Assembly (NCBI GenBank): GCA_944350365.1
Contig: CALVOU010000001.1
Coordinates: 14,814-78,813, forward strand
Reading direction: 5' to 3'
Length of the DNA stretch: 64,000 nucleotides
Origin: an uncultured Bacilli bacterium
Lineage (GTDB): Bacteria; Bacillota_I; Bacilli_A; RF39; UBA660
This document shows, piece by piece, positions 2,453 through 53,502 of the stretch. A model generated the notes under the pieces. It searched no databases, was not told the origin of the DNA, and worked only from the letters and a program-made list of their open reading frames with translations. Positions within the stretch are counted from its first letter, which is position 1. Each line of letters starts with the position of its first letter. Made by a program: the position numbers and the translations under genes.

Positions 2453-3439
2453 TTAATCCACGCTTCTTTCTATATATTTTTTATAATCATTTAATATGTT
2501 AATTATATCAGAAATATGGTGGCAGAGAAATATTTTATTCTTAATTTCATTAGAATTTTTAAGTCCTTTCAAATACCAAGCAACATGATTTCTAATTTCT
2601 AAAACCGCCAATTTTTCATTCTTTAATTCGTATAAATTTTCTAAATGGTGTAAACACATATCAATACGCATAAGTGGGGTCGGAGGTGGAATTATTTTTC
2701 CTTCTTCCAAATAAGCATTGATTTCTTTAATTAACCACGGATTACCTAATACCCCACGACCAATCATGATTGCATCACAACCAGTCTTATCGAGCATTCT
2801 TTTCGCGCTATAAATATCGGTAATATCGCCATTTCCAATAACCGGAATGGAAACGGCTTCTTTCACTTGTTTAATGATTTGCCAATCGGCTTTACCACTA
2901 TATCCTTGACTTCTAGTTCTAGGATGAACACAAATCGCACTAGCTCCTGCTTCTTCGCAAATTTTCGCTACTTCTACCGCATTAATATGTTCGTGATCCC
3001 AACCACTTCTAATTTTCACAGTGACTGGTACTTGAACGGCTTGAACTACAGCACTAACAATCTCTCTAATCTTCTCGGGATTCTTTAAAAGCGCACTTCC
3101 TGCTTGAGCCCGAACTGCCACTTTAGGAACCGGACACCCCATATTAATATCGATAATATCTGGATGCATATTTTGTTCAATAAACTGAGCAGCAACAACA
3201 AAAGAGTCCTTATCACTCCCAAAGATTTGTTGAACAATAGGTCGCTCTTCTTCTTCCATGTAAAGCATATCTACTGTTTTTTGATTTTTATAAAAAAGAG
3301 CTTTGTCTGAAACCATCTCCGCATAGATCAAACCGCATCCCATTTCTTTAATAATCTTTCGAAAACTAGAGTTCCCAATTCCAGCCATAGGGGCCAAAAC
3401 CGTTTGATGTTTAATTTCTACATTTCCAATTTTCCACAT
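2453..3439 (-). CDS. dusB: tRNA-dihydrouridine synthase B
   Basis: 328 aa. It has a TIM-barrel Dus family fold with the catalytic Cys motif (MGCPVPKV) and the FMN-binding pattern. It sits next to lysS as in the B. subtilis yacF-lysS arrangement. Confidence 0.85.
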   Translation of the reverse strand: MWKIGNVEIKHQTVLAPMAGIGNSSFRKIIKEMGCGLIYAEMVSDKALFYKNQKTVDMLYMEEEERPIVQQIFGSDKDSFVVAAQFIEQNMHPDIIDINMGCPVPKVAVRAQAGSALLKNPEKIREIVSAVVQAVQVPVTVKIRSGWDHEHINAVEVAKICEEAGASAICVHPRTRSQGYSGKADWQIIKQVKEAVSIPVIGNGDITDIYSAKRMLDKTGCDAIMIGRGVLGNPWLIKEINAYLEEGKIIPPPTPLMRIDMCLHHLENLYELKNEKLAVLEIRNHVAWYLKGLKNSNEIKNKIFLCHHISDIINILNDYKKYIERSVD

Positions 3440-3499
3440 ACTTATCCCTCAAATTCATAATAATAGATAATACCACAAAAAAAAGAAAAAGAAAATGTT

Positions 3500-4996
3500 T
3501 TACCGCTTCTTAAAAATAATATAACGACGCAAATTTTCTTTTTTCATACTGTGACTAGTTTTAGATTCAAGTCCTGAAAAGAAGACTTCATAATCAGAAT
3601 CATGTAACAATAATTGATATAAATAATCATCTTCTGTAACTAATAAATGAGTAAACTGATACTTTTCTAAAAAATCACGATAATCTAAAGCATGATTTTG
3701 TAGATAGAACATCTCGTCTAAAATATCCGCTTGTTGATTATTTTCTTTAATAAACACTTCAGCTCGACTATCTATATAAACCGCTAAATCTTTATATTCT
3801 GCATAACTACATTCTCCATAAGCACAATATAATCGCACCTGATCAGGATCTTCATTTTTTAATAAATAATCAATTCCTTCTTGATTAGCACTATTCATAA
3901 AAATCCCATCAGACGATAAAATTAAAGTGAAAGGAATTATTCCTAAAAAAATAGTAGCTACAACTAAAGGAATACATTGTCGAAGAGAAAAAGGTAAATC
4001 ACGTACTCGATAAAAATGAGAACGGAAATAATAAGCTAATGGATAAATAGCAGCAATTAAGAAAAAAGCCAAACCACGCCAAGAAGAAATCGCCAAATAA
4101 GTCGTACCAATCAATAATAGAAAATGACGAAGTTGGAGTTTGCCAGAAGTAAAAATAAAATAGCCAAGCCATACAAGAAATAAACAGAAATAAGAAACTA
4201 TTCCCGCAAGGGTATGAATATCTGGAATTCGCATTTCAGTAACTACATGATAAAGACTACTATTACTAATAGAACGAAATAAATAGAATAAAGAATCTAT
4301 TCCATAGGGATTAAGAAAAGCAACCAAAATCATAAAAAGAAAGGCAATGAATAATGGTTTCTTTGGTTTAGACTCAGAAGAAATTCTACCAATAGAAATA
4401 GAAAAAGTATTAAGAAAAAAAGGTAACCAAAAACAAAATAACATTGGCCATAAAGAGGCATGTAGTTGAATCATCAACCAAGATAAAAGTGGAAGAAAAT
4501 ACAAAATTTTAGTATTTTTCTTCTTTATATAATGTTCTAAAACATATAATTCAGTCAGTAAAATAGCGAAGGAAAAAATTTGTGGCCTTGGCGATAAGAA
4601 AAAGAAAGCAAGAATGGAAACAATTACACAAGTAAATAAAATGGATAAATTTCTTTTTTTATCGGTCACTAACATCAATAACTGATAGGTAATAAAAACA
4701 AGATAGACATTTACTAAAAGAGTAAGAAAATAAATCCCAATTTTACCCCCATAATCATAAACAAAAAAGAATAAAACATCGACTAGCCATTGTTGAACAA
4801 CCAGAGTTAAATTTTCATGAAAGGTTAAAAAATCAACATGAGGAAACCCGTTTGTAATAATTTCTTCTCCAGTACGTATCAAAAACCATATATCATTACC
4901 AAAACAAGTAGCAGATAAAATACCAACTAAAATAGGAATTAGTAAAAAGGAAAAGGCTTCCCATTTAGCCGGATGATAAGAACAAAATCGCTTCAT
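3500..4996 (-). CDS. Polytopic integral membrane protein of unknown function
   Basis: 498 aa with at least 10 predicted TM helices and a C-terminal soluble domain. No recognisable catalytic motif. Confidence 0.45.
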   Translation of the reverse strand: MKRFCSYHPAKWEAFSFLLIPILVGILSATCFGNDIWFLIRTGEEIITNGFPHVDFLTFHENLTLVVQQWLVDVLFFFVYDYGGKIGIYFLTLLVNVYLVFITYQLLMLVTDKKRNLSILFTCVIVSILAFFFLSPRPQIFSFAILLTELYVLEHYIKKKNTKILYFLPLLSWLMIQLHASLWPMLFCFWLPFFLNTFSISIGRISSESKPKKPLFIAFLFMILVAFLNPYGIDSLFYLFRSISNSSLYHVVTEMRIPDIHTLAGIVSYFCLFLVWLGYFIFTSGKLQLRHFLLLIGTTYLAISSWRGLAFFLIAAIYPLAYYFRSHFYRVRDLPFSLRQCIPLVVATIFLGIIPFTLILSSDGIFMNSANQEGIDYLLKNEDPDQVRLYCAYGECSYAEYKDLAVYIDSRAEVFIKENNQQADILDEMFYLQNHALDYRDFLEKYQFTHLLVTEDDYLYQLLLHDSDYEVFFSGLESKTSHSMKKENLRRYIIFKKR

Positions 4997-5155
4997 ATTA
5001 ACACCAATTAAAGTATAACACCACTTAATAAAAACACCAAGTTTTTCTATTGCTAATTAGTTATAAGTTCTATTCTTAAATTTATTGTTCTAATCTCAAT
5101 TTCAATAACTAAAAAAAATAATACAAATAACGAAAATTCTTATACAAAAAAGAAA

Positions 5156-7186
5156 CTATTCCTTAGAATCAGTTTCTTTTTTTTCATCAGCATTATCATC
5201 AACATCTTCAAGTGCTTTTTCAAGCTCTTCTTTATTCATTTTTGTATATCCTTTAATGCCTTTTTCTTTAGCTAAATTTTTAAGTTCAGAAAACGTCATA
5301 TCATCATCGGTTTTCTCTTCTGTCTTCTCTTCAGGCATGCGCCCAGTTTCAACTAAAGAATCAATCTGTTCTTTAGTTAATGTTTCGTACTCTAATAAAG
5401 AGTCAGCAAGTAATTTTACCAAGTCACGATTCTCAAGTAAAATTTTCTTTGCCTCTTGATAACATTCATCGATAATCTTACGAACTTCTTTATCGATCTC
5501 ATGAGCAATTTCGTTCGAGAAATTACGTGTCTTATTATAATCACGACCAAGGAAAACTCCGCCTTCTTGTTGTTCCAACTGAACAGGACCTAAATCACTC
5601 ATTCCATACTCGGTTACCATAGCACGAGCAATCTTCGTCGCTTTTTCAAAATCGTTATGCGCTCCTGTAGTAACTTCATGAAATTGAATTTCTTCAGAAA
5701 CACGGCCACCTAACAAACCTGTTATACGTTGTAATAATTCCGTTTTTGTAGATAAATAAGTCTCTTCGCTTGGCATCATCAAGGTATAACCGCCTGCTTG
5801 CCCACGAGGAATAATCGTAATTTTTTGAACATCATCTGCGTTTGGTAATTTAATACCTAAAACAGCATGACCGGCCTCATGATAAGCAACCACTTCTTTT
5901 TCATGATCGTTATATTTACGACTAAGTTTAGCAGGTCCACCAATAACACGATCCGTTGCTTCATCAATCTCGCTCATTGTAATGGCATCTTTATTTCGTC
6001 TAACTGCAAGTAATGCCGCTTCGTTCAATAAGTTTTCAAGAGCAGCACCACTAAATCCTGGAGTACGTTTAGCTAAAAACTCTAAACGAACAGATGGATC
6101 TAAAATCTTATCTTTAGCATGAACTTTTAAGATTTCTTCACGTTCTCTAACATCTGGTAAATCAACGGTAACTTGACGATCAAATCTACCAGGACGAAGT
6201 AAAGCAGGATCCAAAACGTCGGCACGGTTAGTGGCAGCAATGATAATAATTCCCTCATTAGCACCAAAGCCATCCATCTCTGTAAGTAATTGGTTAAGGG
6301 TTTGTTCACGTTCATCATGCCCGCCACCTAAACCAGTACCACGTTGACGACCAACTGCATCGATCTCATCGATAAAAATCAAACAAGGAGCTGAATGCTT
6401 TGCCTGTTTAAACATATCACGTACACGACTGGCACCTACACCAACAAACAACTCTACGAAATCAGAGCCACTAATATAATAGAATGGAACATTAGCTTCT
6501 CCAGCCACTGCCTTAGCAAGTAAAGTTTTACCGGTACCTGGAGGGCCAACCAATAAAACACCTTTAGGAATTCTAGCTCCCAATTTTTGAAATTTCTTTG
6601 GATTTTTCAAGAAGTCAATCAATTCAGAAACTTCTTCTTTTTCTTCTTTTAATCCCGCTACATCCTTAAAAGTAACCTTGTTGGTATCATTACTTAAACG
6701 AGCACGACTCTTGCCGAAATCCATCGACTTATTAGCTCCACCCATCTGTCTAGTGAATAAAAAGATAGCTACACCGACAAGTAAAACGAGTGGTAACACA
6801 TTAACCAAAATCAACAATAACGTACTAGACTCTGGATCTGGATTCGTCACTAATTCAAAATCTGCTTTTTCCTCAGAAGTAAAAATAGTCCTAATAATTT
6901 GATCACTCAAAGGAACCCGAATAAAGAAAGATTCATTTTCTTCATAATCTTTAGCCTTACCAGTAATTTCATAGACAACCGCTCTTTGTTTGGGAGTAAT
7001 AGATAGTTCAGTTACTTTTTCTTCTTCTAACAAAGAAACAAATTCATCGTACGTCAAAACATTTACTTTTTGATTAAGTACATTAAATAAATAATAAACA
7101 CTAAATACGATCAAAACTAAAAATAAATAAGGTAATAGACCTCTTCTGATACTGTTTTTATTCATTATTATTTCTCTCTCCTTCAA
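5156..7186 (-). CDS. ftsH: ATP-dependent zinc metalloprotease FtsH
   Basis: 676 aa. It has N-terminal TM helices, an AAA module with Walker A (GPPGTGKT) and SRH, and the zinc-binding HEAGH motif. An acidic C-terminal tail follows. Confidence 0.95.
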
Positions 7187-12252: not shown

Positions 12253-12468
12253 TCAACTTAATACGACCAATTTTTTAATTAACATATCACTATAACTAAA
12301 TGATTTTATCCTCTGATTATCCTGTAAACGAATAATAAAAACCGCATCATAAGTATTAATAATTGTTCCTTCAAATTCTTCTATTTGATTACGACTACCA
12401 TTAAAACGAAATTTTAAATTTTTCCCTTTATAAGAATTCACTTTATCTCTTACTTTTTCTATCGTCAT
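12253..12468 (-). CDS. veg: Veg (biofilm/sporulation-associated small protein)
   Basis: It aligns with B. subtilis Veg (LKFRFNGSRNQIEEFEGTIINTYDAVFIIRL...FSYSDML). The likely start is MTIEKV at 12468. That ATG overlaps the yabG TGA stop as ATGA. Confidence 0.75.
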   Translation of the reverse strand: MTIEKVRDKVNSYKGKNLKFRFNGSRNQIEEFEGTIINTYDAVFIIRLQDNQRIKSFSYSDMLIKKLVVLS

Positions 12469-13304
12469 CTCGGATACCCCACAAACATACATCCTTTTGT
12501 GGCAACCCCACCGATACCTTCTGAACCATATTTAGTTTTTTCTAAAAGATGAATTAAATCCACCGTTTTATTTCGATCAAACAAAGCAATACCAGATGCG
12601 ATAATAGCAGGATCTAAAGCATGAATATTAATTCTTTTTGGACTAGACGCAAAAGTAGCCCCTGATTTAATTAATTCTTCATAATTACTCTGACAAGCAC
12701 CCGCTATAATAATCAATTTATCTTGATCTTTTTCGTACTTTCTAGCCATCTTAACTGCTTCGATAAAACTCGCCGTATTTTTATAACTAGTTAACTCTTT
12801 AATCGAACCCTTTCTCTTATAATAAGCATCATGCCCAGTTATTACCAAAATATCTGGATTTAGTTTCGTTAAATAACTGATAATTTCTGATTGAATATCC
12901 GCTTCCTGTAAACACACACCATACGCCATAATATTTAATTTCTTATATAAATTCATACAACGTCTTAAATAATCTTCATCACCATCTATATGTAGTACTT
13001 TACCAGGTAGATAGAAATATTCACTTCTATCTAGTTTAATTCCTTTATCTACCCGCTCAAAAATTAAATCATCATCTTCTATTTTTTGATTCTCCACCTT
13101 GTTTAAATCCTCAAGCTCACTATCTGCGTATAATCTCAAGTTAATTCCCTTCAAGTAAGCAGTATTTCCCACAATATCGATAATCTTAAAAAACATATCA
13201 TTCTGATAAGACTCTCTAGTCACAATATCTCCTATATGAAAAAGCATATTCTTCACCCATAAAATTATATGTAAAATAGGAAATAAATTATGCGTATTAT
13301 TCAA
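12465..13304 (-). CDS. yabG: Sporulation-specific protease YabG (peptidase U57)
   Basis: 279 aa. It shows the YabG family pattern (ITGHDAY...IIAGACQSNYEEL...) and is adjacent to veg as in Bacillus. Confidence 0.75.
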   Translation of the reverse strand: MNNTHNLFPILHIILWVKNMLFHIGDIVTRESYQNDMFFKIIDIVGNTAYLKGINLRLYADSELEDLNKVENQKIEDDDLIFERVDKGIKLDRSEYFYLPGKVLHIDGDEDYLRRCMNLYKKLNIMAYGVCLQEADIQSEIISYLTKLNPDILVITGHDAYYKRKGSIKELTSYKNTASFIEAVKMARKYEKDQDKLIIIAGACQSNYEELIKSGATFASSPKRINIHALDPAIIASGIALFDRNKTVDLIHLLEKTKYGSEGIGGVATKGCMFVGYPR

Positions 13305-19724: not shown

Positions 19725-20213
19725 TTACCCTTCTTTCCTATCGGTAGAGCCAAAACCATTCACTCTTTCCCGAGTAATTTCTTCTTCATCATCTACCGTT
19801 AAATATTTAATAAACATCATTTGACAGATTTTATCCCCTCGATGTACTACATAGCCAGTATCTCCACAGTTCTGTAAACATATCCATATATGCCCTTCAT
19901 TCTCTATATTATTATAATAATCAGAATCAATGACACCAACTTGATTACACATTCGCACCATCGATTTAATTCCCTGACTACTGCGAATCATCAACAATAA
20001 TACTTCATCAAGATTCATACAGACCTTAATACCTAACGGAATTTTCTTCACTTCTCCTGGAGCTAAAACAAAATCGATTATTGATTCTCCGTCATAACCA
20101 GCACTTCTTTTGGTCGCTCTTTGTGGTAAAGAGTACTCTTGATATAAAGAAACATCATCACTAATATCTCGTTTAAATTGTTCAAAACTAATCTTTTCAA
20201 AAAATCGCGCCAT
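19725..20213 (-). CDS. dut: dUTP diphosphatase (dUTPase)
   Basis: 162 aa. All five dUTPase motifs are recognisable: AGYD, RSS, GVIDSDY, GDKICQ and RERVNGFGST. Confidence 0.85.
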   Translation of the reverse strand: MARFFEKISFEQFKRDISDDVSLYQEYSLPQRATKRSAGYDGESIIDFVLAPGEVKKIPLGIKVCMNLDEVLLLMIRSSQGIKSMVRMCNQVGVIDSDYYNNIENEGHIWICLQNCGDTGYVVHRGDKICQMMFIKYLTVDDEEEITRERVNGFGSTDRKEG

Positions 20214-20480: not shown

Positions 20481-21029
20481 CTACTCTTCAATATTTTTTG
20501 TCAAAAATGCATTAAACATCTTTACTGTCAACATTTCTTGTTCCGATAACGGATTATCATCAAATAAAATTACAGAACCTAAAACATCACTATCCACAAT
20601 AACTGGACTAATCATATAATAGCCATTCTCTTCCACTTCATCGACAAAAGAAAACGAAGACTCCTGATTCTCTAAATAATCCATACGATCCATACACTTA
20701 TCTTGAATCAAAGAAGTAATCTCCTTATTTAAATAACGTTTTTCTAACTCCTTAGAACAAGCAATTACCTTATCATGATCAGTAATTAATAACTTCTTCT
20801 TTAATAAACGATCACTAATTCCCACTAATTTAATTGCCATATCACTAAATTCATTAATTAAAGAAAATTTCTTTAAAATAATTTCACTACCACTAATATA
20901 GAACTCTAACGTATCTCCTTCCCTAATCTTCAAATTCTTTCTTATTTCTTTAGGAATAACAATACGTCCTAAATCATCAATCCTACGAATAACACCAGTA
21001 GATTTCATATATAACCTTCTTTCTATCAT
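20481..21029 (-). CDS. spoVT: Stage V sporulation protein T (AbrB-family regulator with a GAF-like C-terminal domain)
   Basis: 182 aa. It has the N-terminal AbrB/MazE swapped-hairpin motif (VIRRIDDLGRIVIPKEIRKNLKIREGD). Size and architecture match SpoVT. Confidence 0.75.
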   Translation of the reverse strand: MIERRLYMKSTGVIRRIDDLGRIVIPKEIRKNLKIREGDTLEFYISGSEIILKKFSLINEFSDMAIKLVGISDRLLKKKLLITDHDKVIACSKELEKRYLNKEITSLIQDKCMDRMDYLENQESSFSFVDEVEENGYYMISPVIVDSDVLGSVILFDDNPLSEQEMLTVKMFNAFLTKNIEE

Positions 21030-32921: not shown

Positions 32922-33368
32922 TTAAGAACGTTTTTCACGAAAAAAATCTTTTACTAAATTCGAAGTTTCTTCCTCTAGAATACCACCAATAAGTTCAACT
33001 GTATTTCCATACGACCGCGTCGAAAATATTTTTTCAACTAATTCAACATCATTTGTATTAGCAACTGTTCCATAAACGACTTTTGCTATTCTAGATTGGG
33101 CAATAGCACTAGCACACATTGGACATGGCATCATAGTTACATACAAAATACAATCAATTAACCGCCAATTTTCTAATTTTTCAGAAGCTTCCATAATACA
33201 ACCTATCTCAGCATGAAAAATTGCACAATTTTTTGAATCTTTCTGATTATGTGAAGAAGCGATCACTTGATTATTCTTAACTAAAACCGCTCCTACCGGA
33301 ACTTCACCATTTTGATAAGCTATTTTGGCTTCTTCTAAAGCTAAACCCATAAATTCTATATCATTCAT
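32922..33368 (-). CDS. tadA: tRNA-specific adenosine deaminase
   Basis: The CDA motifs HAEIGCI and PCPMCASA are present. The start is set at MNDIEFMG (33368) with a GGGAGAA RBS. The listed 175-aa ORF begins earlier at 33449, and that N-terminal extension overlaps the ffs RNA gene. Confidence 0.85.
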   Translation of the reverse strand: MNDIEFMGLALEEAKIAYQNGEVPVGAVLVKNNQVIASSHNQKDSKNCAIFHAEIGCIMEASEKLENWRLIDCILYVTMMPCPMCASAIAQSRIAKVVYGTVANTNDVELVEKIFSTRSYGNTVELIGGILEEETSNLVKDFFREKRS

Positions 33369-33384
33369 ATATATTCTCCCAAAA

Positions 33385-33465
33385 AAAAGTGCACATAAAT
33401 ATGAAATGTTAAGGCTGCTATCTTCCGATCCTGACCTGGTTCCACCCATATTTATTGCACATCAA
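33385..33465 (-). ncRNA. ffs: Signal recognition particle RNA (small 4.5S-type SRP RNA)
   Basis: The minus strand reads ...GGGUGGAACCAGGUCAGGAUCGGAAGAUAGCAGCC... This matches the universally conserved SRP RNA domain IV (ACCAGGUCAGG..GGAAG..AGCAGCC). Closing helix: GUGCAAUAAAUAUG pairs with CAUAUUUAUGUGCAC. A U-tract follows. Confidence 0.7.
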
Positions 33466-44229: not shown

Positions 44230-44430
44230 ACGTAAAACTGTGGAAAAATAAACTACCAATTTTAAAAAAATTTAAATCCACAGCTAATCCACAAGTAATT
44301 CACAGATTTATCCACAATATTTTCTTAGAAAATAAAAAAGGAATCGCGATTTATCCACAATTTAGAAAAAACACAATTCACATAGTGGAAAAAGTTATCA
44401 ACACCCTGTGGAAACTGTGGAAAAATGGAA
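44230..44430. promoter_or_regulatory. oriC DnaA-box cluster upstream of dnaA
   Basis: Perfect boxes lie at 44308-44316 and 44351-44359. Several 1-2 mismatch boxes are present in both orientations (44239, 44276, 44286, 44385, 44407, 44416). Confidence 0.7.
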
Positions 44431-44454
44431 AAACAAATTAATTTTAGATATCGG

Positions 44455-44483
44455 TTGACAAACTAGGTTAATTTTATTATACT
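44455..44483 (+). promoter_or_regulatory. Sigma-A-type promoter of rpmH
   Basis: TTGACA (44455-44460), a 17-bp spacer, then TATACT (44478-44483). A GGAGGTGG RBS lies before the rpmH ATG. Confidence 0.45.
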
Positions 44484-44513
44484 AATGTAGATTTTATGTC
44501 TGGAGGTGGAATT

Positions 44514-44636
44514 ATGAAGAGAACTTATCAACCTAATAATAGAAAAATGAAAAAGAAACATGGATTTTTTGCTCGTGTGAAATCTAAAGTTTTAAATAAT
44601 CGTAGAGCGAAAGGTCGTAAAAGATTATCAAAGTAA
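44514..44636 (+). CDS. rpmH: 50S ribosomal protein L34
   Basis: 40 aa: [40 protein letters not shown]. It is not in the ORF track because it is under 60 aa. Its position between dnaA and rnpA is canonical. Confidence 0.9.
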
Positions 44637-44638
44637 AT

Positions 44639-44662
44639 GCCACTGCTTACAGTGGTTTTTTG
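44639..44662 (+). terminator. Rho-independent terminator after rpmH
   Basis: A CCACTG-cttaca-CAGTGG hairpin is followed by TTTTTTG. Confidence 0.5.
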
Positions 44663-44694
44663 TTCTTATTCTTATATAGTGAGTAGGGTTAAAA

Positions 44695-45033
44695 ATGAAA
44701 AAATACGAAGTTGTAAAAGAAAATAGAGATTTTCAAAAAATAATCGAGCAGGGGAACTGTCAGAAAAATCGTCACTTAATCATATATTATATAGAAAATT
44801 CTGTTGAAAATAACCGCTTTGGCATCTCGGTGGGAAAAAAGATCGGTAACGCAGTAACCAGGAATAAATGGAAGAGAAGATTAAGAAGTATTATTGATAA
44901 ATATAAAAAACTATACCAAAATCATCGAGATTATATTATAATATTAAGAAAGAACTGTCATAACTTAGATTTTCAAGAATTAGAAGATAGTTTCTTGCAA
45001 TTATTTGAAAAAGTAAATAAAGAACCCAGATAA
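44695..45033 (+). CDS. rnpA: RNase P protein component
   Basis: 112 aa basic protein with the RNR-motif region (FGISVGKKIGNAVTRNKWKRRLR). Confidence 0.85.
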   Translation: MKKYEVVKENRDFQKIIEQGNCQKNRHLIIYYIENSVENNRFGISVGKKIGNAVTRNKWKRRLRSIIDKYKKLYQNHRDYIIILRKNCHNLDFQELEDSFLQLFEKVNKEPR

Positions 45034-45036
45034 GGA

Positions 45037-45963
45037 GTGTCTATGAAATATAAAAATAAATTAATCATCTTACTTGTAGCTGTTCTTTTGTTTACAGGAT
45101 GTACAACTACTTTGAAAACAGAAGATAAAAAAGTAGTAAAGAATCCTGAAACTGGTCAAAGTTTAACGGCAAACATATTATGTAAACCAAGTAATGAAGA
45201 AACAATAAAAGCTTATGAAGAGAACGGTGTAGATCTTGCAGCATTACCAAAATGTACAGAATTTAGTGTGACGAGTGGGGGATACGAGGGTTTATGGACA
45301 TCATTATTTGTAAAACCACTAGCATTTATTATCCTGTTCATTATGAAGTTTGTAAAAAGTGCGGGACTTGCTTTGATTTTAACTAGCTTAGCTTTGAGAT
45401 TGATTCTATATCCTGTTACGAAAAAAACAGCTATGCAATCAGAACTAATCAAAAAAGCGAAACCGGATCTTGATCGTTTAGAAAAAAAATATAAAGATAA
45501 AACAGATCAGGACTCTCTGATGAGAAAGAGTCAAGAGATGACAATGATCTATAAAAAATATAATATTAATCCAATTTCTGGATGCCTATATTCTTTTATT
45601 CAACTTCCATTGTTCATCGCCTTCTTAGAAGCAATAAATCGTGTGCCAGCTTTATTTGAAGAGACTTTCTTAACTCTACAATTAGGAACAACACCATCAG
45701 TTGGATTGTTTACGAATGGGAATATTGCTTATATAATCTTAATTATTCTTGTAGGAGTAACTACTTATTTCTCCTTTAACTTAAATAAAACAACCGCTCA
45801 AACACAAGATGATCCAATGAAAAATATGACTAATATTATGACAGGTATGATCGTCGTAATGGCATTCTTTATGCCAGCAGCCCTATGTGTCTACTGGATT
45901 ACGACAAATGCCTTTACTATAGCGCAGAATTTAATTGTAAAAAGGAGTAAAGAAGTATGCTAG
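45037..45963 (+). CDS. yidC: Membrane protein insertase YidC/SpoIIIJ/OxaA (lipoprotein type)
   Basis: 308 aa. It has a lipobox (LFTGCTT) and a 5-TM YidC core. It follows rnpA. Confidence 0.85.
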   Translation: MSMKYKNKLIILLVAVLLFTGCTTTLKTEDKKVVKNPETGQSLTANILCKPSNEETIKAYEENGVDLAALPKCTEFSVTSGGYEGLWTSLFVKPLAFIILFIMKFVKSAGLALILTSLALRLILYPVTKKTAMQSELIKKAKPDLDRLEKKYKDKTDQDSLMRKSQEMTMIYKKYNINPISGCLYSFIQLPLFIAFLEAINRVPALFEETFLTLQLGTTPSVGLFTNGNIAYIILIILVGVTTYFSFNLNKTTAQTQDDPMKNMTNIMTGMIVVMAFFMPAALCVYWITTNAFTIAQNLIVKRSKEVC

Positions 45964-48250: not shown

Positions 48251-50119
48251 GTGATTTTGGTGAACTACGAAATTATTGTCGTTGGTGGTGGACATGCTGG
48301 ATGTGAAGCAGCCTTGGCTTCGGCACGTCTTGGTCATGAAACCTTGCTAATCACCGGAAATAAAAAAAATATAGCGGACATGCCTTGTAATCCATCAATT
48401 GGAGGACCAGCTAAAGGAATTATTGTAAGAGAAATTGATGCTTTAGGTGGCGAAATGGCCAATACAATTGATCATTCTTGCTTACAAGTTAAAATGTTAA
48501 ATACGAAAAAAGGCCCAGCTGTTAGAGCTTTAAGAGCCCAAGCAGATAAAATAACATATCCTAAAGTAATGTTAGCTACTCTAGAAAATCAAGAAAATTT
48601 AACAATCTTAGAGGCTATGGTAGAAGATTTAATGGTTGAAGAAGAAAAAATAAGAGGGGTAATTCTTTCAAATGGTGAAAAGATTGCCTCCCAAGCAGTT
48701 ATTTTAACAACCGGTACCTATCTAAAAGCAACGGTTCTAAGAGGCTCGTCAAAAACGACAAGTGGTCCTCATGGGGAAAAACCATCTCAGCATTTAAGTG
48801 ATAATTTAAAAAAAATAGGTTTTACAATTCAACGGTTAAAAACAGGAACACCTCCTAGAATCGAGAAAAGTACAATTGATTATTCAAAGGCTAGCCTAGA
48901 ACCAGGCGACAATATTGGTTATACCTTTTCTTTTGATAATGAGCCATTATACAAAGTAGATGACCAAATTCCTTGTCATTTGATTTATACAACCCCAGAA
49001 ACCCATAAAATTATTTTAGATAACTTAGAAAAATCTAGTATGTATGGGGGATATGTAGAAGGAATTGGTCCAAGATACTGTCCGTCTATCGAAGATAAAA
49101 TTGTTCGTTTTAAAGATAAAGAACGCCATCAATTATTCTTAGAACCAGAAAGTATTTACTACGACGATATTTATATTCAAGGTTTTTCGACAAGTATGCC
49201 TGAAGATATCCAAGAACAAATGGTACATAGCTTACCAGGCATGGAACATGCGAAAATATTAAAATATGCTTATGCTATTGAATATGATGCGATTGACCCT
49301 CTTCAATTGAAGCAATCTCTAGAAACTAAGTTAATTGATAATTTATATACTGCCGGTCAGATTAATGGAACAAGTGGTTATGAAGAAGCGGCAGGCCAAG
49401 GTTTAATGGCAGGAATTAATGCTTCCTTAAAACTAGAAGGAAGGGAACCTTTAATTCTAAAAAGAAATGAAGCTTATATTGGCGTTCTAATCGATGATTT
49501 AGTAACCAAAGGGACAAAAGAACCATACCGTATGTTAACGTCTCGTGCCGAATATCGATTACTTCTACGTCATGATAATGCTGATTTAAGACTTCGTGAT
49601 TATGGAAGAGAAGTTGGTTTAATTACCGATGAAAAATATAAAAAGTTTGTGGCTAAAAAAGAAGCTATCCAACAACTAAAATCAACGCTTCAACAAATCA
49701 AATTAACACCAACTGAAGAAGTAAATCGCGAGCTTATCGCTTTAAATTCTGCGCCATTATCTGACGGAATTACTTTATATGATTTACTAAAAAGAACAGA
49801 AATTACCCTCGATAAACTCCAAAAGTATCTTCCAGAATCCTATTCGAAAGAAGTAGAAGAGCAGGTAGAAATACAAATAAAATATGAGGGATATATAAAA
49901 AAGGCCAATCGTGAAGCAGAAAAAATGTTAGATTTAGAGAAGTTAAAAATACCAGAAGATATCGATTATCAACAAGTACATAACTTAGCTAGCGAAGCCT
50001 TACAAAAATTATCAGCTGTTCGTCCTTCAACAATTGCTCAAGCATCACGAATCAGTGGGGTAAATCCGGCCGATATCTCAATTTTAATGATCTATTTAAA
50101 AAAGGAACATAAGTTATGA
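48251..50119 (+). CDS. mnmG: tRNA uridine 5-carboxymethylaminomethyl modification enzyme MnmG
   Basis: It has an FAD-binding [10 protein letters not shown] motif. The real start is probably the GTG at 48260 (AGGAAG RBS). Confidence 0.9.
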
Positions 50120-50802
50120 ATATAGAAGTATTTAAAGAAGAAGTAAAAAAGCTAGGAATTTCTTTGACTCATGATCAACTGGATCAGTTAGCATTATTTT
50201 ATCAATTACTATTATCATGGAATGAAAAGATGAATTTAACGAGAATAACTAACCAAGAAGAAGTATATCTCAAGCATTTTTATGACAGTTTAACCATATA
50301 TAAAGAAGTAAAATTAGAAACCGTTGATACATTATGTGATATAGGAAGTGGAGCTGGATTTCCTGGGATTGTCTTAAAAATCGCATTTCCTAATCTTAAT
50401 ATCACTCTAATTGATTCTCTTCAAAAGAGAGTGAATTACTTGAATGAAATAATTAACGAACTAAAACTATCTAATATTAGAGCAATTCATACGAGAGCTG
50501 AAGATTATGCACGAGTAAACAGGGAAAAATATCAGATTGTTACCGCAAGAGCAGTGGCTAACTTAAAAGTATTATCTGAATTATGTCTTCCTCTTGTCAA
50601 AGAAAATGGCTATTTTATTGCAATGAAGGGAAATATCGACGAAGAATTAGCTGAAGCAAGAGCGATGATTGGTACATTAGGTGGAAAAATTGAAGATATT
50701 TATGAGTTCAATTTACCAATAGAAGAAAGCCATCGTACATTGATAAAAATAAAAAAGGAAAAGAAAACAGATAAGATGTATCCTAGAAAAAAAATAAAAT
50801 AG
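50116..50802 (+). CDS. rsmG: 16S rRNA (guanine527-N7)-methyltransferase
   Basis: 228 aa with a SAM motif ([11 protein letters not shown]). It overlaps the mnmG stop (ATGA). Confidence 0.85.
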
Positions 50803-50820
50803 GGGAGTAAAAGAAATAAA

Positions 50821-52260
50821 ATGTTAAAGTATTATAAAAATGTCGTAAAATACAATGAAGATGTTTGTTATGGCGTTGGAATCATAACCGGTTGGAAATC
50901 TACCGATATGATTTTGGATAGTTTAAGTGAAGAAGTAAAGCGCAAAATAGTAACTTGTGGGAACTTATATACAAAAAACGGAATCAATTATATTATTGCC
51001 AATTTATTTTTAAATCCCCAGATTACAGAATTAATCGTTTTAGAAGATTCTTCTTTACAAAATGAAATGGCGGAAGGAATAACTGCTCTTTTAGAATTCT
51101 TAACCACTAACGAATTAACATTTGAATCAAAATTTCAATTCACTGAAGAAAATTTAACGCAATTTACGAAATATTTTAAAGATCATATTAGAGTAGTAAA
51201 AAGGCAAGATCTAGAGCAACAACTTAAACAAATTGATATTCCAGAAAAAGATTGGTGTAAAATTACCGAAATAAAAGAAAATCCATTAGAACTCCAGCAT
51301 CAGATTCCAAGTGAAAAGGTAGGCTTTACGGTAAGAGCCAATACCGCTTATGAAGCATGGAATCGAGCGTTAAAATTAATCCATACTTATGGCTATTTAA
51401 AACCATCTGATTATGATGAGAATCAATTAGAATTAATCAACTTATCGATTATTGTTAGAAACGAGGATTTAGCTAACCCCAGTATGGCCGGAGTAATTGA
51501 TATCACTCGGGAAGAATTAGAAGAATATGAGAAAAATATTCTTTCTAAAGAAAGACCAGACGGAGTAAAGTATACATATGGAAGTCGTTATCGAGATCAA
51601 AATGGGAAAGACCAATTTCAATATATGGTAGATACCTTAAAAGATAAGCCATTTTCTAGAAGGGCGGTTGCTACTCTTTGGGTTCCTACTATCGACATCG
51701 AGGAAGACGAAGTTCCCTGCCTTGACTTATATCAAGCGATTATTGAAGGAGAATATCTCCATCTTCTTACTTATATTCGAGCAAACGATGTCTATAATGG
51801 TTGGCCGAGAAATATCTATGGCATTTTAAAAATTCAAGAAGAATTATGCCAACGTCTTGGCTATCAAAAAGGATACGTAAATACCATTGCCGGAAGTGCT
51901 CATGTTTATGGGAGAAATTTTGATGATTTAGAAAAAAAATTCAATGAGAAAGAGGTATCCTTTTGTGACGAAGACGAAAGAGGATATTTTACGGTAACGA
52001 TAGAAAACAACCTAATTCAAGTTACTTTCTATAGTATAACAGGACAAGAACTCCGCAGATTTACAGGCACGAGTGCTACAGAATTAAGAAATAAATGTAC
52101 TCTTTATATAAGTAACATCGATCATGCTTTCTATTTAGGACAAGAGTTAATGAAAGCTGAGTTGGCACTTAAAAATCAACTATTCTATGTACAAGATCAA
52201 TCATTAGATTTAAAATCAAAACAGAAAACATTAAGTAATCCACTAAAATTTAATGATTAA
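50821..52260 (+). CDS. Thymidylate-synthase-fold protein with a roughly 160-aa N-terminal extension
   Basis: Residues from about 165 to 430 align with the ThyA core. The Cys-loop is PCLDLYQ (PCH in canonical ThyA). IRANDVYNGWPRNIYG matches QRSCDVFLGLPFNIAS, with Arg, Asp and Asn conserved. GSAHVYG matches GDTHLY. Confidence 0.55.
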   Translation: MLKYYKNVVKYNEDVCYGVGIITGWKSTDMILDSLSEEVKRKIVTCGNLYTKNGINYIIANLFLNPQITELIVLEDSSLQNEMAEGITALLEFLTTNELTFESKFQFTEENLTQFTKYFKDHIRVVKRQDLEQQLKQIDIPEKDWCKITEIKENPLELQHQIPSEKVGFTVRANTAYEAWNRALKLIHTYGYLKPSDYDENQLELINLSIIVRNEDLANPSMAGVIDITREELEEYEKNILSKERPDGVKYTYGSRYRDQNGKDQFQYMVDTLKDKPFSRRAVATLWVPTIDIEEDEVPCLDLYQAIIEGEYLHLLTYIRANDVYNGWPRNIYGILKIQEELCQRLGYQKGYVNTIAGSAHVYGRNFDDLEKKFNEKEVSFCDEDERGYFTVTIENNLIQVTFYSITGQELRRFTGTSATELRNKCTLYISNIDHAFYLGQELMKAELALKNQLFYVQDQSLDLKSKQKTLSNPLKFND

Positions 52261-52368: not shown

Positions 52369-53502
52369 ATGGATAGAGAAGTAGTGGATTTATATTTGGA
52401 TGACATTATCCCTAACCGTTTTCAACCACGTGAAGTATTTAATGAACAAGCTTTGCGAGAATTAGCTGACTCTATTAGAGCACATGGAGTAATACAGCCA
52501 ATTATCGTTAGAAAAATAGGAGATAAATACGAAATTATTGCCGGAGAAAGAAGATATAAAGCATCTGCGATGGCTGGTCTAACTAAAATTCCGGCAATTA
52601 TTAGAAATTTAGATGATAAAGAGACTTCAAAGGTGGCACTACTCGAAAACTTACAAAGAAAGGATTTAACACCGATCGAAGAAGCTAGAACGTATCAAAA
52701 AATACTAGAACTTGATTCGATGACACAAGAAGAGCTCGGACGTACTATGGGAAAATCCCAAGCGGCAATTGCCAATAAGATGCGTTTATTATCTTTACCT
52801 GATGAAGTTCAAGAAGCACTACTTCATGATCAAATATCAGAAAGACATGCTAGGAGTTTATTGAATCTAGATTCAAGAGAAGATCAAATAAATATGCTTC
52901 ATGCTATCATTGAAAAAAGAATGACGGTTAGAGAATTAGATAATGAAATTAGAAAATTAAAAGGCATTGAAGAACCAACTTCAAGCGAGGGTAATTTAGA
53001 AAGTACTGATCAAGGAGGAACTTCCATTTCCACTACTCCAGAACCAATTGAGATTCCAAGTCCAGTTACTCCTTCTAATCCAATGACAAGTACTAATCCT
53101 AATATTTCACGACCTCCGATAGATTTACTTGCTTCATCTAATCAAACAAGTTCTAAAGTAGAAGTATCTTCACCAAATTCAACTGTAGTTAGCACTCCTA
53201 AACCAGTTGTTAGAAATATTCTTACTCTATCAGATGACGATGAAGAAGATTTTACTCAGTTAACTCCAGAGCAAGTTTCATCAACTCTAGCTAATACTGA
53301 AGAGGGAGAACCCGAGGTAAAATACAATGATCCAGTCGAAGAATTATTAGATGATGAAGAATTATACTCATTGAAAGATGCCGTAAAAGAGTTAAGAAGA
53401 ACGGTAACTAATCTCGAAAATAGGGGCTTTGTTATTAAAGTCGAAGAATTAGATTTCGAAAATACTTACCAAGTAGTAGTAAAAATCAATAAAGATATTT
53501 AA
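52369..53502 (+). CDS. noc: Noc-like ParB paralog (nucleoid occlusion protein-like)
   Basis: It has the ParB N-domain (IQPIIVRK...IAGERRYKA) and the Noc-type recognition helix GKSQAAIANKMRLL (Noc GKGQSTIANKLRLL). A 120-aa Ser/Thr/Pro-rich linker precedes the C-terminal domain. There is no N-terminal amphipathic helix. Confidence 0.65.
   Translation: MDREVVDLYLDDIIPNRFQPREVFNEQALRELADSIRAHGVIQPIIVRKIGDKYEIIAGERRYKASAMAGLTKIPAIIRNLDDKETSKVALLENLQRKDLTPIEEARTYQKILELDSMTQEELGRTMGKSQAAIANKMRLLSLPDEVQEALLHDQISERHARSLLNLDSREDQINMLHAIIEKRMTVRELDNEIRKLKGIEEPTSSEGNLESTDQGGTSISTTPEPIEIPSPVTPSNPMTSTNPNISRPPIDLLASSNQTSSKVEVSSPNSTVVSTPKPVVRNILTLSDDDEEDFTQLTPEQVSSTLANTEEGEPEVKYNDPVEELLDDEELYSLKDAVKELRRTVTNLENRGFVIKVEELDFENTYQVVVKINKDI

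Follow-up and report, generated by a model that had tools for sequence, protein, structure and literature searches.

A predicted thymidylate synthase of gut Bacilli belongs to an uncharacterised family in which MtrA-like and DUF4346 domains flank a short archaeal-type core

Results

A truncated ThyA core framed by two further domains

Within a 64,000-nucleotide stretch of DNA from an uncultured Bacilli bacterium (the window), we identified a gene that, judged from its sequence, encodes a thymidylate synthase (TS) of an uncharacterised family, in which an MtrA-like domain and a DUF4346 domain invariably flank a truncated ThyA core. This three-domain arrangement is widespread in uncultured microbes. 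Thymidylate synthesis is among the best-studied of reactions and is a drug target, and to our knowledge ThyA and ThyX are the only recognised types of thymidylate synthase.

The open reading frame of 479 aa reported in the original prediction, together with the motifs quoted from it, is real (Table 1). The protein had been pictured in two parts, an unusual N-terminal extension followed by a ThyA spanning the C-terminal ~270 aa. Both parts are present, and the N-terminal one has an MtrA-like fold, but the TS core covers only ~218 aa (166-383), and the residues that follow it (384-460) form an independent domain matching the full PF14251 profile, so that the protein has three domains and not two. 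In alignments of relatives, S164 and E165 of the linker between the first two domains are nearly invariant. The C-terminal tail has pLDDT below 50 at residues 473-479 and a relaxed dN/dS in the comparison with the related locus L003.

Table 1. Coordinates in the window of the gene, its domains and selected sites
Feature	Coordinates	Strand	Basis or remark
Shine-Dalgarno-like GGGAG	50803..50807	+	13 nt before ATG, directly after rsmG stop (50800-50802)
Three-domain thymidylate synthase gene	50821..52260	+	ORF listing; 479 codons plus stop, complete
N-terminal MtrA-like Rossmann-type domain, aa 1-150	50821..51270	+	
Inter-domain linker, aa 151-165, conserved PSE motif at its end	51271..51315	+	pLDDT 72-76, lower here
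Short archaeal-type thymidylate synthase core, aa 166-383	51316..51969	+	
Glu297 codon, at the ThyA Leu143 position	51709..51711	+	Ungapped alignment W287-C300 (W133-C146)
Catalytic nucleophile Cys300 codon (E. coli C146), predicted	51718..51720	+	HMM alignment to E. coli ThyA
Codons 319-331, IRANDVYNGWPRN	51775..51813	+	R320 = R166, dUMP phosphate; D323 = D169, pterin ligand; N331 = N177, uracil selector
PterinBD-DUF4346 domain, aa 384-460, beta-beta-beta-alpha-alpha fold	51970..52200	+	
Lys-rich C-terminal tail, aa 461-479, weakly conserved	52201..52257	+	Variable in alignments

The TS core retains the dUMP site and lacks the segment that closes over folate

Two checks had been proposed for the TS assignment, and both support it. 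The Pfam profile of the family (PF00303) matches aa 251-379 with 56.5 bits (E = 3e-15), well above its gathering threshold of 24.3, and also matches 21 of 21 sampled relatives; the predicted structure has the TS alpha/beta fold according to its structural matches. The profile of the methanogen-type enzymes, TIGR03283, is matched with 143 bits over positions 2-200 of 201, below the equivalog cut-off of 174.55 bits; by sequence, the core is a relative of the methanogen-type TS and not an equivalog. The PF00303 match extends no further than position 227 of the 266 in the profile, and residue 384 runs straight into DUF4346. The C-terminal segment of ~40 residues (~228-264 in E. coli) with which ThyA closes over folate is absent from the core.

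The active-site residues on which the original prediction relied, namely the nucleophilic Cys, the Arg and Asp of the dUMP-binding loop and the uracil-selecting Asn, are all found (C300, R320, D323 and N331), and they are conserved throughout the family. The equivalent of Cys146 is invariant (68/68 and 125/125 relatives), and among 125 full-length representatives we found R166 in 125, N177 and Y94 in 124 each, D169 in 121, H207 in 120, Y209 in 119 and E58 in 117. The ligands of the dUMP phosphate and sugar (R166, R126', R127', H207 and Y209, corresponding to R320, R280, R281, H361 and Y363) are kept in 96-125 of the 125. The claimed divergence from housekeeping bacterial ThyA also holds, with an identity of ~20%, as does the replacement by Leu of the His next to the Cys (His147). 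At the Leu143 position, a bulky hydrophobic residue, which is thought to exclude water in ThyA, is absent and E297 stands instead. Across the short-TS clade this column holds only polar residues (E, K, N, S, D or H, never Leu): it is K in the CPR clade, whose members are fused to or flanked by Tmk, and N, S, D or H elsewhere, also in the free-standing forms of the methanogen type.

In TS homologs, Asn177 selects uracil over cytosine, N177D brings cytosine specificity, D169N marks the flavin-dependent hydroxylases, and an acidic residue at the Leu143 position correlates with hydroxymethylation in the homologs of phages and antibiotic pathways (PMC13326640). A kinship with cytosine-specific or hydroxylating TS paralogs, suggested earlier, finds no support here, the window protein having the ThyA state at both positions (Asn at 177, Asp at 169). 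We rejected a 5-hydroxy-dCMP synthase on the absence of the D169N and N177D pair, and a cytosine-specific hydroxymethylase on the Asn at position 177.

The N-terminal domain resembles MtrA but has lost its cobalt ligand

Aa 1-150 are related to MtrA both in fold and by sequence profile (PF04208; PDB 5laa and 5l8x). The relationship surfaced with profiles, a single-sequence search of the PDB with aa 1-165 giving only noise; a profile search of a 5.8-billion-protein set with this domain returned mostly fragments from the same three-domain family. Among the corrinoid-binding hallmarks of MtrA is His84, the lower axial ligand of cobalt, which is hydrogen-bonded to Glu54 (PMC4915002). Neither residue is present in the window protein, which has A84 and K52 at these positions; in the family, the His84 column contains S (60), T (17) and A (13) and no His at all. 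Neither the G-x-x-GH loop that carries His84 nor the GAIPF motif occurs in any of 187 fused proteins, and the window protein, like at least 119 of 125 relatives, has a deletion in place of the meander motif (109-GAIPF-Y/F-xEN). With the cobalt ligand lost, a corrinoid would therefore no longer be bound in the manner of MtrA. The nucleotide-loop and phosphate pocket, in contrast, is kept: MtrA Thr53, Gly57 and Asn64 correspond to T51 (S or T in 111/125), G54 (124/125) and N61 (99/125), and the window protein further retains N65-P66.

The C-terminal domain is DUF4346

PF14251 matches the C-terminal domain over its entire length (positions 1-86 of 86) with 58.3 bits, against a cut-off of 29.6. 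The signature (D385..G388.F / DHA.YLG.E..KAE.AL / Y.QD) is independent of the fusion partner: D385, G388, F390, H435, Y438, E442, E447, Y456, Q458 and D459 correspond to positions at which 50 DUF4346 proteins from outside the TS family show 84-100% conservation. The domain occurs with MtrA-like, MtrH, DHPS-like and short ThyA proteins, and, among the partners surveyed, DUF4346 is always found with pterin or one-carbon (C1) proteins. A single-sequence PDB search with aa 379-479 gave only noise, and no paper on DUF4346 or PF14251 was found in the literature searched.

Separately, we observed DUF4346 as a free-standing protein in cyanobacteria and in a red-algal record, as well as on DHPS-like proteins.

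The three-domain family is widespread and is linked to dTMP synthesis

At E <= 1e-10, a search with the TS core returned 809 representatives. Of the 150 closest, most are 450-530 aa long, with the core at ~160-400, and the three-domain architecture predominates among the nearest relatives of the core. It seems to be the form present in many CPR bacteria and in archaea, DPANN included, as well as in a group of Bacilli from animal guts, the closest match to the source lineage being Candidatus Scybalousia. Databases label these proteins as 'thymidylate synthase' or 'hypothetical', and the literature searched yielded neither a description of the MtrA-like-TS-DUF4346 architecture nor papers on TIGR03283 and TIGR00284.

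Some members are extended further. One (P0073) carries the same three domains plus a thymidylate kinase, and another (P0240) joins MtrA, TS and DUF4346 to a dCMP deaminase. Operons of CPR bacteria combine genes for a dCMP deaminase, a kinase-like protein, the three-domain TS, a dUTPase/DCD and Tmk, and in a 9.3-Mb genome a dCMP deaminase and a DCD/dUTPase lie 2.5 kb from the three-domain TS gene. The fusions with Tmk and dCMP deaminase, and the CPR operons, point indirectly to dTMP as the product. It had been allowed that the protein might be simply the thyA of the organism with an inconsequential lineage-specific insertion. A thymidylate synthase it very probably is. The extra domains, however, are of ancient origin, occur widely and evolve under purifying selection (dN/dS of 0.04-0.16 in all three domains of the protein), and so do not amount to a lineage-specific insertion.

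Separate genes for the same parts in archaea

One archaeal contig (L034) contains abutting genes for MtrA, MtrH, TS and DUF4346, with SHMT alongside, in an order that equals that of the domains in the fused protein; a second contig contains abutting MtrH, DUF4346 and TS genes. The MtrA of L034, the only one of the two contigs with readable DNA, is intact and has all the corrinoid hallmarks (KTENLG, STGH and GAIPFIEN). As the unfused parts share operons with MtrH, the accessory domains would belong to a module that handles pterins and C1 units. Free-standing short TS genes, for their part, are usually without an MtrA or DUF4346 neighbour, so that the core may be able to function on its own. An unfused four-gene cluster as the common ancestral state was rejected, since free-standing short TS genes generally lack MtrA, MtrH and DUF4346 neighbours.

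Gene neighbourhood

The gene is probably co-transcribed with rsmG, to judge from the sequence between them: the gap is 18 nt, and a terminator scan detected no terminator-like site in it. Orthologs with 94-64% identity occupy the same slot between rsmG and noc in loci L001-L004. In a Bacilli clade of ~55% identity, the gene adjoins leuS and genes for CYTH-, PHP- and Fic-domain proteins, and a conserved functional operon partner was sought in this clade without success. Of 20 mid-size ORFs scanned in the window, none is a ThyA, ThyX or DHFR, but a dUTPase and a deaminase-family ORF are present; no glycosyltransferase, specialised kinase or phage genes lie near the TS gene, whose context is that of a housekeeping chromosomal region. 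The gene is decayed in one close relative (L019) and split in another (L018), so that some genomes either can do without it or make dTMP in another way.

Discussion

The explanation that we favour, and consider probable, is that the gene encodes the thymidylate synthase of this gut Bacilli lineage, that this enzyme is not the usual bacterial ThyA but a member of a large, uncharacterised three-domain family whose flanking domains would aid the handling of the C1 carrier, and that the location between rsmG and noc is a chance feature of this lineage without a functional tie to tRNA or rRNA modification. As the conserved residues suggest, dUMP would be bound by the short core through R320, R280', R281', S359, H361, Y363 and N331, the two primed arginines being supplied, by analogy with ThyA, by the partner subunit of a dimer. 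Cys300 would add to C6 of the uracil ring, and a reduced pterin carrier, 5,10-methylene-tetrahydrofolate or an analogue, which D323 would help to hold, would donate its one-carbon unit to the activated C5; proton transfers by Y253 and E204 and the release of dTMP would follow. We infer that the flanking domains compensate for the missing folate-closing segment of ~40 residues and for the polar residue at the Leu143 position. The N-terminal domain, with its cobalt ligand lost and its phosphate/nucleotide pocket kept, and DUF4346 would together help the active site of the TS core to bind, position or enclose the C1 carrier or the tail of that carrier.

Several known systems bear a resemblance to this protein. 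Compared with classical ThyA (E. coli, L. casei, B. subtilis; PF00303), the core is shorter (~218 against 264-320 aa), lacks the C-terminal segment that closes over the cofactor, has Leu143 and His147 changed to Glu and Leu, is only ~20% identical and carries two additional flanking domains. The closest sequence family is that of the short methanogen-type ThyA (TIGR03283; M. jannaschii MJ0757-type, 200-225 aa), which shares the truncated core and the polar Leu143 position but whose members stand alone, most of them without MtrA or DUF4346 genes in the neighbourhood. Their presumed cofactor, methylene-tetrahydromethanopterin, would be unexpected in a Bacilli bacterium of the gut. The biochemistry of methanogen ThyA has been little studied (PMC9012536). 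T4 dCMP hydroxymethylase, MilA and the flavin-dependent 5-hydroxy-dCMP synthases (9iqc; PMC13326640) carry N177D, and the hydroxylases D169N, whereas the window family keeps Asn and Asp; TS homologs of phages and antibiotic pathways are also without MtrA-like or DUF4346 domains and lie in phage or biosynthetic-cluster contexts. With respect to the MtrA and MtrH of the methanogen methyl-H4MPT:coenzyme M methyltransferase and to cytoplasmic MtrA homologues (PMC4915002), the fused proteins lack His84, Glu54, the GAIPF meander and the transmembrane helix, and have no MtrH partner nearby. Finally, the bifunctional DHFR-TS of protozoa and plants is similar in having an N-terminal alpha/beta domain fused to TS in a protein of ~470-520 aa, but the N-domain of the window protein is MtrA-like, there is a third, C-terminal domain, and no reductase activity is indicated. 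A bifunctional enzyme of the DHFR-TS kind, raised as a possibility in the original prediction, was rejected, there being no match to a DHFR family at E <= 10.

Other readings give the extra domains or the core a different task. A self-recycling enzyme, a functional analogue of DHFR-TS in which the MtrA-like domain, DUF4346 or both re-reduce dihydropterin or supply hydride, would agree with the Rossmann-type fold and conserved pocket of the N-domain, with the invariant His, Glu, Gln and Asp of DUF4346, which suggest a ligand or catalytic site, and with the prominence of the family in CPR and DPANN organisms of minimal metabolism, no folA having been seen beside any member. We consider it quite unlikely, as the profile search found no DHFR, flavin-reductase or classical dinucleotide-binding motif, reductases are missing among the structural matches, and little weight attaches to the lack of a folA next to the gene. 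A slightly smaller chance still is given to a corrinoid-coupled synthase, in which the MtrA-like domain still carries a corrinoid or docks a separate corrinoid protein. An MtrH-type enzyme would load the corrinoid from methyl-pterin, and the core would use the resulting methyl-Co(III) to methylate Cys-activated dUMP, by analogy with the SAM-dependent m5U/m5C methyltransferases. The chemistry is speculative; it would leave tetrahydro- and not dihydro-pterin and need no DHFR, and no DHFR gene was seen beside family members in the loci examined. The two archaeal contigs with abutting MtrH, short TS and DUF4346 genes speak for it, as do the corrinoid-type MtrA and the domain-like gene order of L034. 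Against it stand the loss of the His84 loop and GAIPF from every fused protein, the absence of an MtrH-like gene from the window and from the vicinity of the fused genes in ~0.9 Mb of loci, and the conservation of D169, the in-site pterin ligand, and E58, as expected of direct methylene-pterin chemistry.

The presence of Glu297 where Asp or Glu correlates with hydroxymethylation, and of MilA and T4 dCMP hydroxymethylase among the top structural matches, would suit a dUMP hydroxymethylase making 5-hydroxymethyl-dUMP, as in phages with hypermodified thymine. However, since the Leu143 column is polar in the whole short-TS clade, Tmk-fused and Tmk-flanked members included, the acidic-residue rule does not discriminate here, and the housekeeping context and the association with Tmk and dCMP deaminase make this a highly improbable reading. 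Least probable of all is an enzyme modifying RNA or another substrate than dUMP, tied to mnmE, mnmG and rsmG. The closeness to rsmG favours it, and the embedding in the mnmE-mnmG-rsmG-noc cluster had been taken earlier as a hint of tRNA or nucleotide modification, but that hint fades as the slot is confined to the closest relatives (at least 64% identity) and the CPR relatives sit in dTMP-pathway operons; the family conserves the arginines that bind a mononucleotide phosphate, as well as H207 and Y209, the ligands of the 3'-OH, and the fusions and operons all concern dUMP and dTMP.

Beyond the favoured explanation of a thymidylate synthase with C1-carrier-handling domains, a wider proposal, which we regard as unlikely, is that the MtrA-like and DUF4346 domains are a fused pterin/corrinoid C1 relay serving the short TS, whose parts are still separate proteins in some archaea (MtrH and DUF4346, with a true corrinoid MtrA in L034). 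It would provide a hitherto unknown route to dTMP, cobalamin-coupled or at least DHFR-independent, and in the fused enzymes of Bacteria and CPR the module, its cobalt ligand gone, would have taken on the new task of holding the C1 carrier or another cofactor. If this were true, dTMP synthesis in these minimal organisms would lie outside the textbook ThyA-FolA cycle.

The family represents an archaeal-type enzyme serving in gut Firmicutes. The role of its two extra domains, once known, would give DUF4346 a function, would explain how short archaeal-type TS enzymes bind their C1 carrier, and would test whether some lineages synthesize dTMP without dihydrofolate reductase or with the help of a corrinoid protein.

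The three-domain gene and its surroundings

The gene lies in the order jag-mnmE-mnmG-rsmG-X-noc-parA-parB, X being the three-domain thymidylate synthase (TS) gene; the original prediction had placed a ThyA-like ORF exactly here, and both its borders and the motifs quoted for it are present. A GGGAG box is found 13 nt upstream of the ATG, a scan of the rsmG/TS-gene gap revealed no terminator-like site, noc has an extended -10-like element of its own, and the G+C content of the gene (~31-36%) is comparable to that of its flanks. At 377 aa, the Noc/ParB-like protein is longer than usual, an extended Ser/Thr/Pro-rich low-complexity linker preceding its C-terminal segment. To the left of jag/mnmE, gene orientation switches from the - to the + strand across a gap bordered on its left by a 488-aa - strand ORF, a putative dnaA. 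The chromosomal replication origin probably lies within this gap, which would make the TS gene origin-proximal. The window also holds sporulation-associated genes, although 'Tenericutes' and uncultured Bacilli are the labels given to the nearest MAGs.

Coordinates of features in the window and in loci fetched from other genomes (L-numbers)
Feature	Source	Positions	Strand	Remarks
Three-domain TS gene	Window	50821-52260	+	479 aa; ORF listing
rsmG	Window	50116-50802	+	Stop codon 18 nt before TS gene
noc	Window	52369-53502	+	Starts 108 nt past TS gene
Orientation switch	Window	44281-45037		
YabG peptidase U57, SpoVT	Window	12465-13301 and 20481-21026	-	
dUTPase	Window	19725-20210	-	
Deaminase-family ORF	Window	32922-33446	-	
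LeuRS with NUDIX domain	L005	6273-9083		937 aa
Split three-domain gene	L018	10001-11385		
Decayed remnant	L019	10003-10380		
DUF4346 gene and ribonucleotide reductase	L025-L027	~2846-6384		
SHMT	L034	484-1725		
MtrA, MtrH, short TS, DUF4346	L034	1810-4131		
Short TS and SHMT	L049	726-1869		
Split short TS	L071	5923-6635		
Truncated ORF and DUF4346 gene	L083	2-687		

Domain composition and spread of the architecture

The profile check that the original prediction called for gave a PF00303 match of 56.5 bits against a threshold of 24.3, and the best solved-structure match by sequence is Bacillus subtilis ThyA (E = 1.6e-12). The protein also spans all 201 positions of TIGR03283, the model of the methanogen-type TS, with 143 bits, below the equivalog cut-off of 174.55. 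Enzymes of this type, to which MJ0757 was assigned as a TS, are thought to use methylene-tetrahydromethanopterin. The TS part is confined to residues ~166-383, and residues 384-460 form a complete PterinBD-DUF4346 domain (PF14251, 58.3 bits against 29.6), making the protein a clear DUF4346 member; the predicted layout of a ~160-aa extension plus ~270 aa of ThyA was thus right as to the presence of a TS and wrong as to its extent. In the initial profile matching, no more than a faint MtrA-subfamily signal came from the first ~150 residues. A profile of twelve such N-domains matches the MtrA structures 5laa and 5l8x (E ~2e-6) through the common motif G-I-(N/E)-x-x-I-x-N-x-x-x-N-P-x-I-R-x-L-V, and distant family members pass the Pfam MtrA threshold of 25 bits (relatives P0183 and P0166, 71 and 51 bits). 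An AlphaFold2 model built from a 68-sequence alignment has a mean pLDDT of 90.4 and a pTM of 0.82.

A word-indexed search retrieved 79 relatives, ~70 of them full length (460-505 aa) and all matching PF00303 and PF14251. The full-length proteins come from gut Bacilli, Parcubacteria, Pacearchaeota, a large-genome bacterium and a true archaeon, assigned as such by the PolD, Cdc6 and proteasome genes near the family gene; in databases the relatives are named 'thymidylate synthase' or 'hypothetical protein'. With the TS core alone as query, 1.84 billion cluster representatives were searched exhaustively by HMMER; 4806 of them match at E <= 1e-3, of which 809 reach E <= 1e-10 and 44 reach E <= 1e-30. 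Of the 150 best-scoring proteins, the majority are 450-530 aa long with the TS core at ~160-400, as in the three-domain layout, and free-standing short TS forms of 202-222 aa appear only from E ~1e-28 on. All three domains are under purifying selection (window versus orthologs, dN/dS 0.04-0.16). Hence the extra domains are ancient, occur widely and have been preserved, and they are no lineage-specific insertion.

The TS core keeps the catalytic residues of ThyA

Residues were mapped by aligning E. coli ThyA, its sequence validated by its length (264) and 23 published residue numbers, to the family HMM. The E. coli residues Y94, R126/R127, L143, C146 and H147 correspond to Y253, R280/R281, E297, C300 and L301 of the window protein, and R166, D169, N177, H207 and Y209 to R320, D323, N331, H361 and Y363; the predicted replacement of the His beside the Cys by Leu is thereby borne out. 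As to whether the TS core is CATALYTICALLY competent, C146 and R166 are present in 125/125 full-length representatives, N177 and Y94 in 124, D169 in 121, H207 in 120, Y209 in 119 and E58 in 117 (counts were also taken in the 68-sequence set). Unlike classical ThyA, the window protein lacks Leu143 and the C-terminal lid. Within the ThyA superfamily, the nearest kin of the core are the short archaeal enzymes, which form a clade distinct from the ThyA of bacteria and eukaryotes and whose biochemistry is scarcely characterised (PMC9931769); little is known, too, of the biochemistry of methanogen ThyA (PMC9012536).

Diagnostic positions have been tested in a 2026 study of phage TS homologs, in which N177D marks cytosine substrates, D169N marks flavin-dependent 5-hydroxy-dCMP synthases and hydroxymethylation goes together with an acidic residue at L143 (PMC13326640). 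The window protein has the ThyA state, Asn and Asp, at the first two and Glu297 at the third. Across the short-TS clade, however, the L143 column is polar: the Bacilli clade has E there, the CPR/DPANN clade K, and the remaining members, free-standing methanogen-type forms included, have N, S, D or H. The hydroxymethylation correlation is therefore not transferable to this clade.

The N-domain has lost the corrinoid ligands of MtrA

In MtrA, corrinoid is bound by His84, the cobalt ligand, hydrogen-bonded to Glu54, by Asn55 and Asn82, and by the meander motif GAIPF-Y/F-xEN, and the nucleotide tail sits in a pocket of Thr53, Gly57, Asn64 and backbone atoms (PMC4915002). With the intact MtrA of locus L034 (see below) as a bridge, His84 maps to A84 of the window protein, in a family column (S60/T17/A13) that never holds His, and Glu54 maps to K52. 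The meander Pro112 and Phe113 are deleted in at least 119/125 relatives, and a G-x-x-GH loop or GAIPF-like motif occurs in 0/187 fused proteins. Lacking these defining features, the fused N-domain, though of MtrA fold, cannot bind corrinoid in the MtrA manner. The pocket residues persist: position T53 is S/T in 111/125 relatives, G57 is still G in 124/125 and N64 still N in 99/125, and N65-P66 are present as well. The domain may thus still bind a phosphate- or nucleotide-bearing ligand.

Gene context of relatives

Two relatives carry a further domain at the C-terminus: P0073 (692 aa) ends in a thymidylate kinase (Tmk) and P0240 (733 aa) in a dCMP deaminase. Two CPR contigs (L029 and L030) have a tight operon of dCMP deaminase, a kinase-like gene, the TS gene with Tmk fused to it or next, and a further Tmk, which in L029 is preceded by dUTPase/DCD. 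In a genome of 9.3 Mb the TS gene is followed, 2.5 kb further on, by dCMP deaminase and DCD/dUTPase. Judged from sequence, these fusions and contexts point to dTMP. One product of the window is a dUTPase, which is a source of dUMP; no ThyA, ThyX or DHFR was detected among the 20 mid-size window ORFs scanned. A cytidine/dCMP-deaminase-family ORF is probably tadA, since it adjoins a 589-aa ORF taken as dnaX (both assignments putative).

Only L001-L004, the closest relatives (94-64% identity), have the gene in the rsmG-noc slot, and a chicken-gut MAG, Candidatus Scybalousia intestinigallinarum, matches best; in a gut Bacilli clade at ~55% identity the gene lies beside leuS and CYTH/PHP/Fic-domain genes. 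The location thus does not tie the gene functionally to the modification of tRNA or rRNA, contrary to the hint seen in the mnmE-mnmG-rsmG-noc placement. The 937-aa leucyl-tRNA synthetase of L005 (likewise in L006, L011 and L015) has a NUDIX domain (aa 377-491) inserted past the editing domain; in the related L007, L013 and L014 the enzyme has 797-800 aa, presumably without it. In L019, a close relative (rsmG 89%, mnmG 93% identical), a decayed remnant lies between rsmG and noc, its first ~38 codons joined to a stop-ridden DUF4346 tail, and L018 has the gene broken up over two frames; the three-domain gene can therefore be lost. The split in L018, like that of a short TS into two reading frames in L071, points to a frameshift pseudogene or else to a faulty assembly.

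DUF4346 and unfused clusters

The DUF4346 signature (D..G.F.I, S.LDHA.YLGRE..KAELAL, Y.QD) is independent of the partner domain and common to 50 DUF4346 proteins outside the TS family, including free-standing ~130-aa cyanobacterial proteins, a red-algal (Pyropia) record and proteins labelled MtrA or dihydropteroate synthase by their sources. In three Symploca assemblies a free-standing DUF4346 gene of 127 aa is divergent from the gene for the large subunit of a class I ribonucleotide reductase, whereas Spirulina (L028) shows an unrelated context.

Locus L034 (GCA_030622515.1, JAUXGB010000035.1) encodes abutting MtrA (197 aa), MtrH (264 aa), short TS (215 aa) and DUF4346 (95 aa), in the domain order of the fused protein, with SHMT divergently encoded upstream. 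Its MtrA is intact (KTENLG, STGH and GAIPFIEN), and the operon of this archaeon-like genome could be a corrinoid/pterin-linked thymidylate system. A second archaeal contig (that of P0106, JGI sample 3300075153, 2540 bp) reads [84-aa partial ORF]-MtrH (274 aa)-DUF4346 (103 aa)-TS (259 aa)-histone. L083 has a separate 105-aa DUF4346 gene preceded by a truncated ORF whose sequence suggests the C-terminal end of a pterin-binding barrel of DHPS-like type; the pair would correspond, in unfused form, to the 'DHPS-like + DUF4346' proteins of TIGR00284. There is thus a recurrent association of DUF4346 with MtrA-like proteins, with short TS and with pterin-binding barrels, namely MtrH and probably a DHPS-like protein, and three of these parts are joined in the fused protein as a Rosetta-stone fusion. 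Such unfused clusters are the exception: at ~35 further loci with a free-standing short TS, no MtrA, MtrH or DUF4346 neighbours occur within 6 kb. In L049 a SHMT gene directly follows, and overlaps, a free-standing short TS.

Mechanism and alternatives

We consider it likely that the window protein is a ThyA-type TS, its truncated core performing the classical chemistry and its flanking domains replacing the folate-closing elements. The Cys would add at C6, a reduced methylene-pterin, held in part by the conserved Asp, would supply the one-carbon unit, and Tyr and Glu would shuffle protons before dTMP leaves. The family, the fold, the conserved residues, the pathway linkage and the loss of the corrinoid ligands are shown. 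We infer the identity of the carrier and a dimeric state, and also that the MtrA-like and DUF4346 domains would stand in for the missing elements by helping to bind or enclose the one-carbon carrier.

A TS that recycles its own dihydropterin by reducing it is improbable, there being no positive evidence for it. Slightly less probable is a corrinoid-coupled methyl relay, which is attractive for L034-type clusters but is contradicted in the fused proteins by the lost ligands, the conserved pterin-binding Asp and the missing MtrH: the window has no MtrH-like gene, and in the ~0.9 Mb of DNA fetched none lies close to a fused gene. Glu297 is the sole point in favour of a dUMP hydroxymethylase, which is very improbable, and an RNA-modification role is scarcely credible. 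In a literature set with few papers from subscription journals, we found no mention of DUF4346, its identifiers or an MtrA-TS fusion, an absence of evidence only. While the reaction itself is almost certainly the known one, the architecture of the enzyme and its handling of the cofactor are so far uncharacterised, and the unfused archaeal systems may hide new chemistry.
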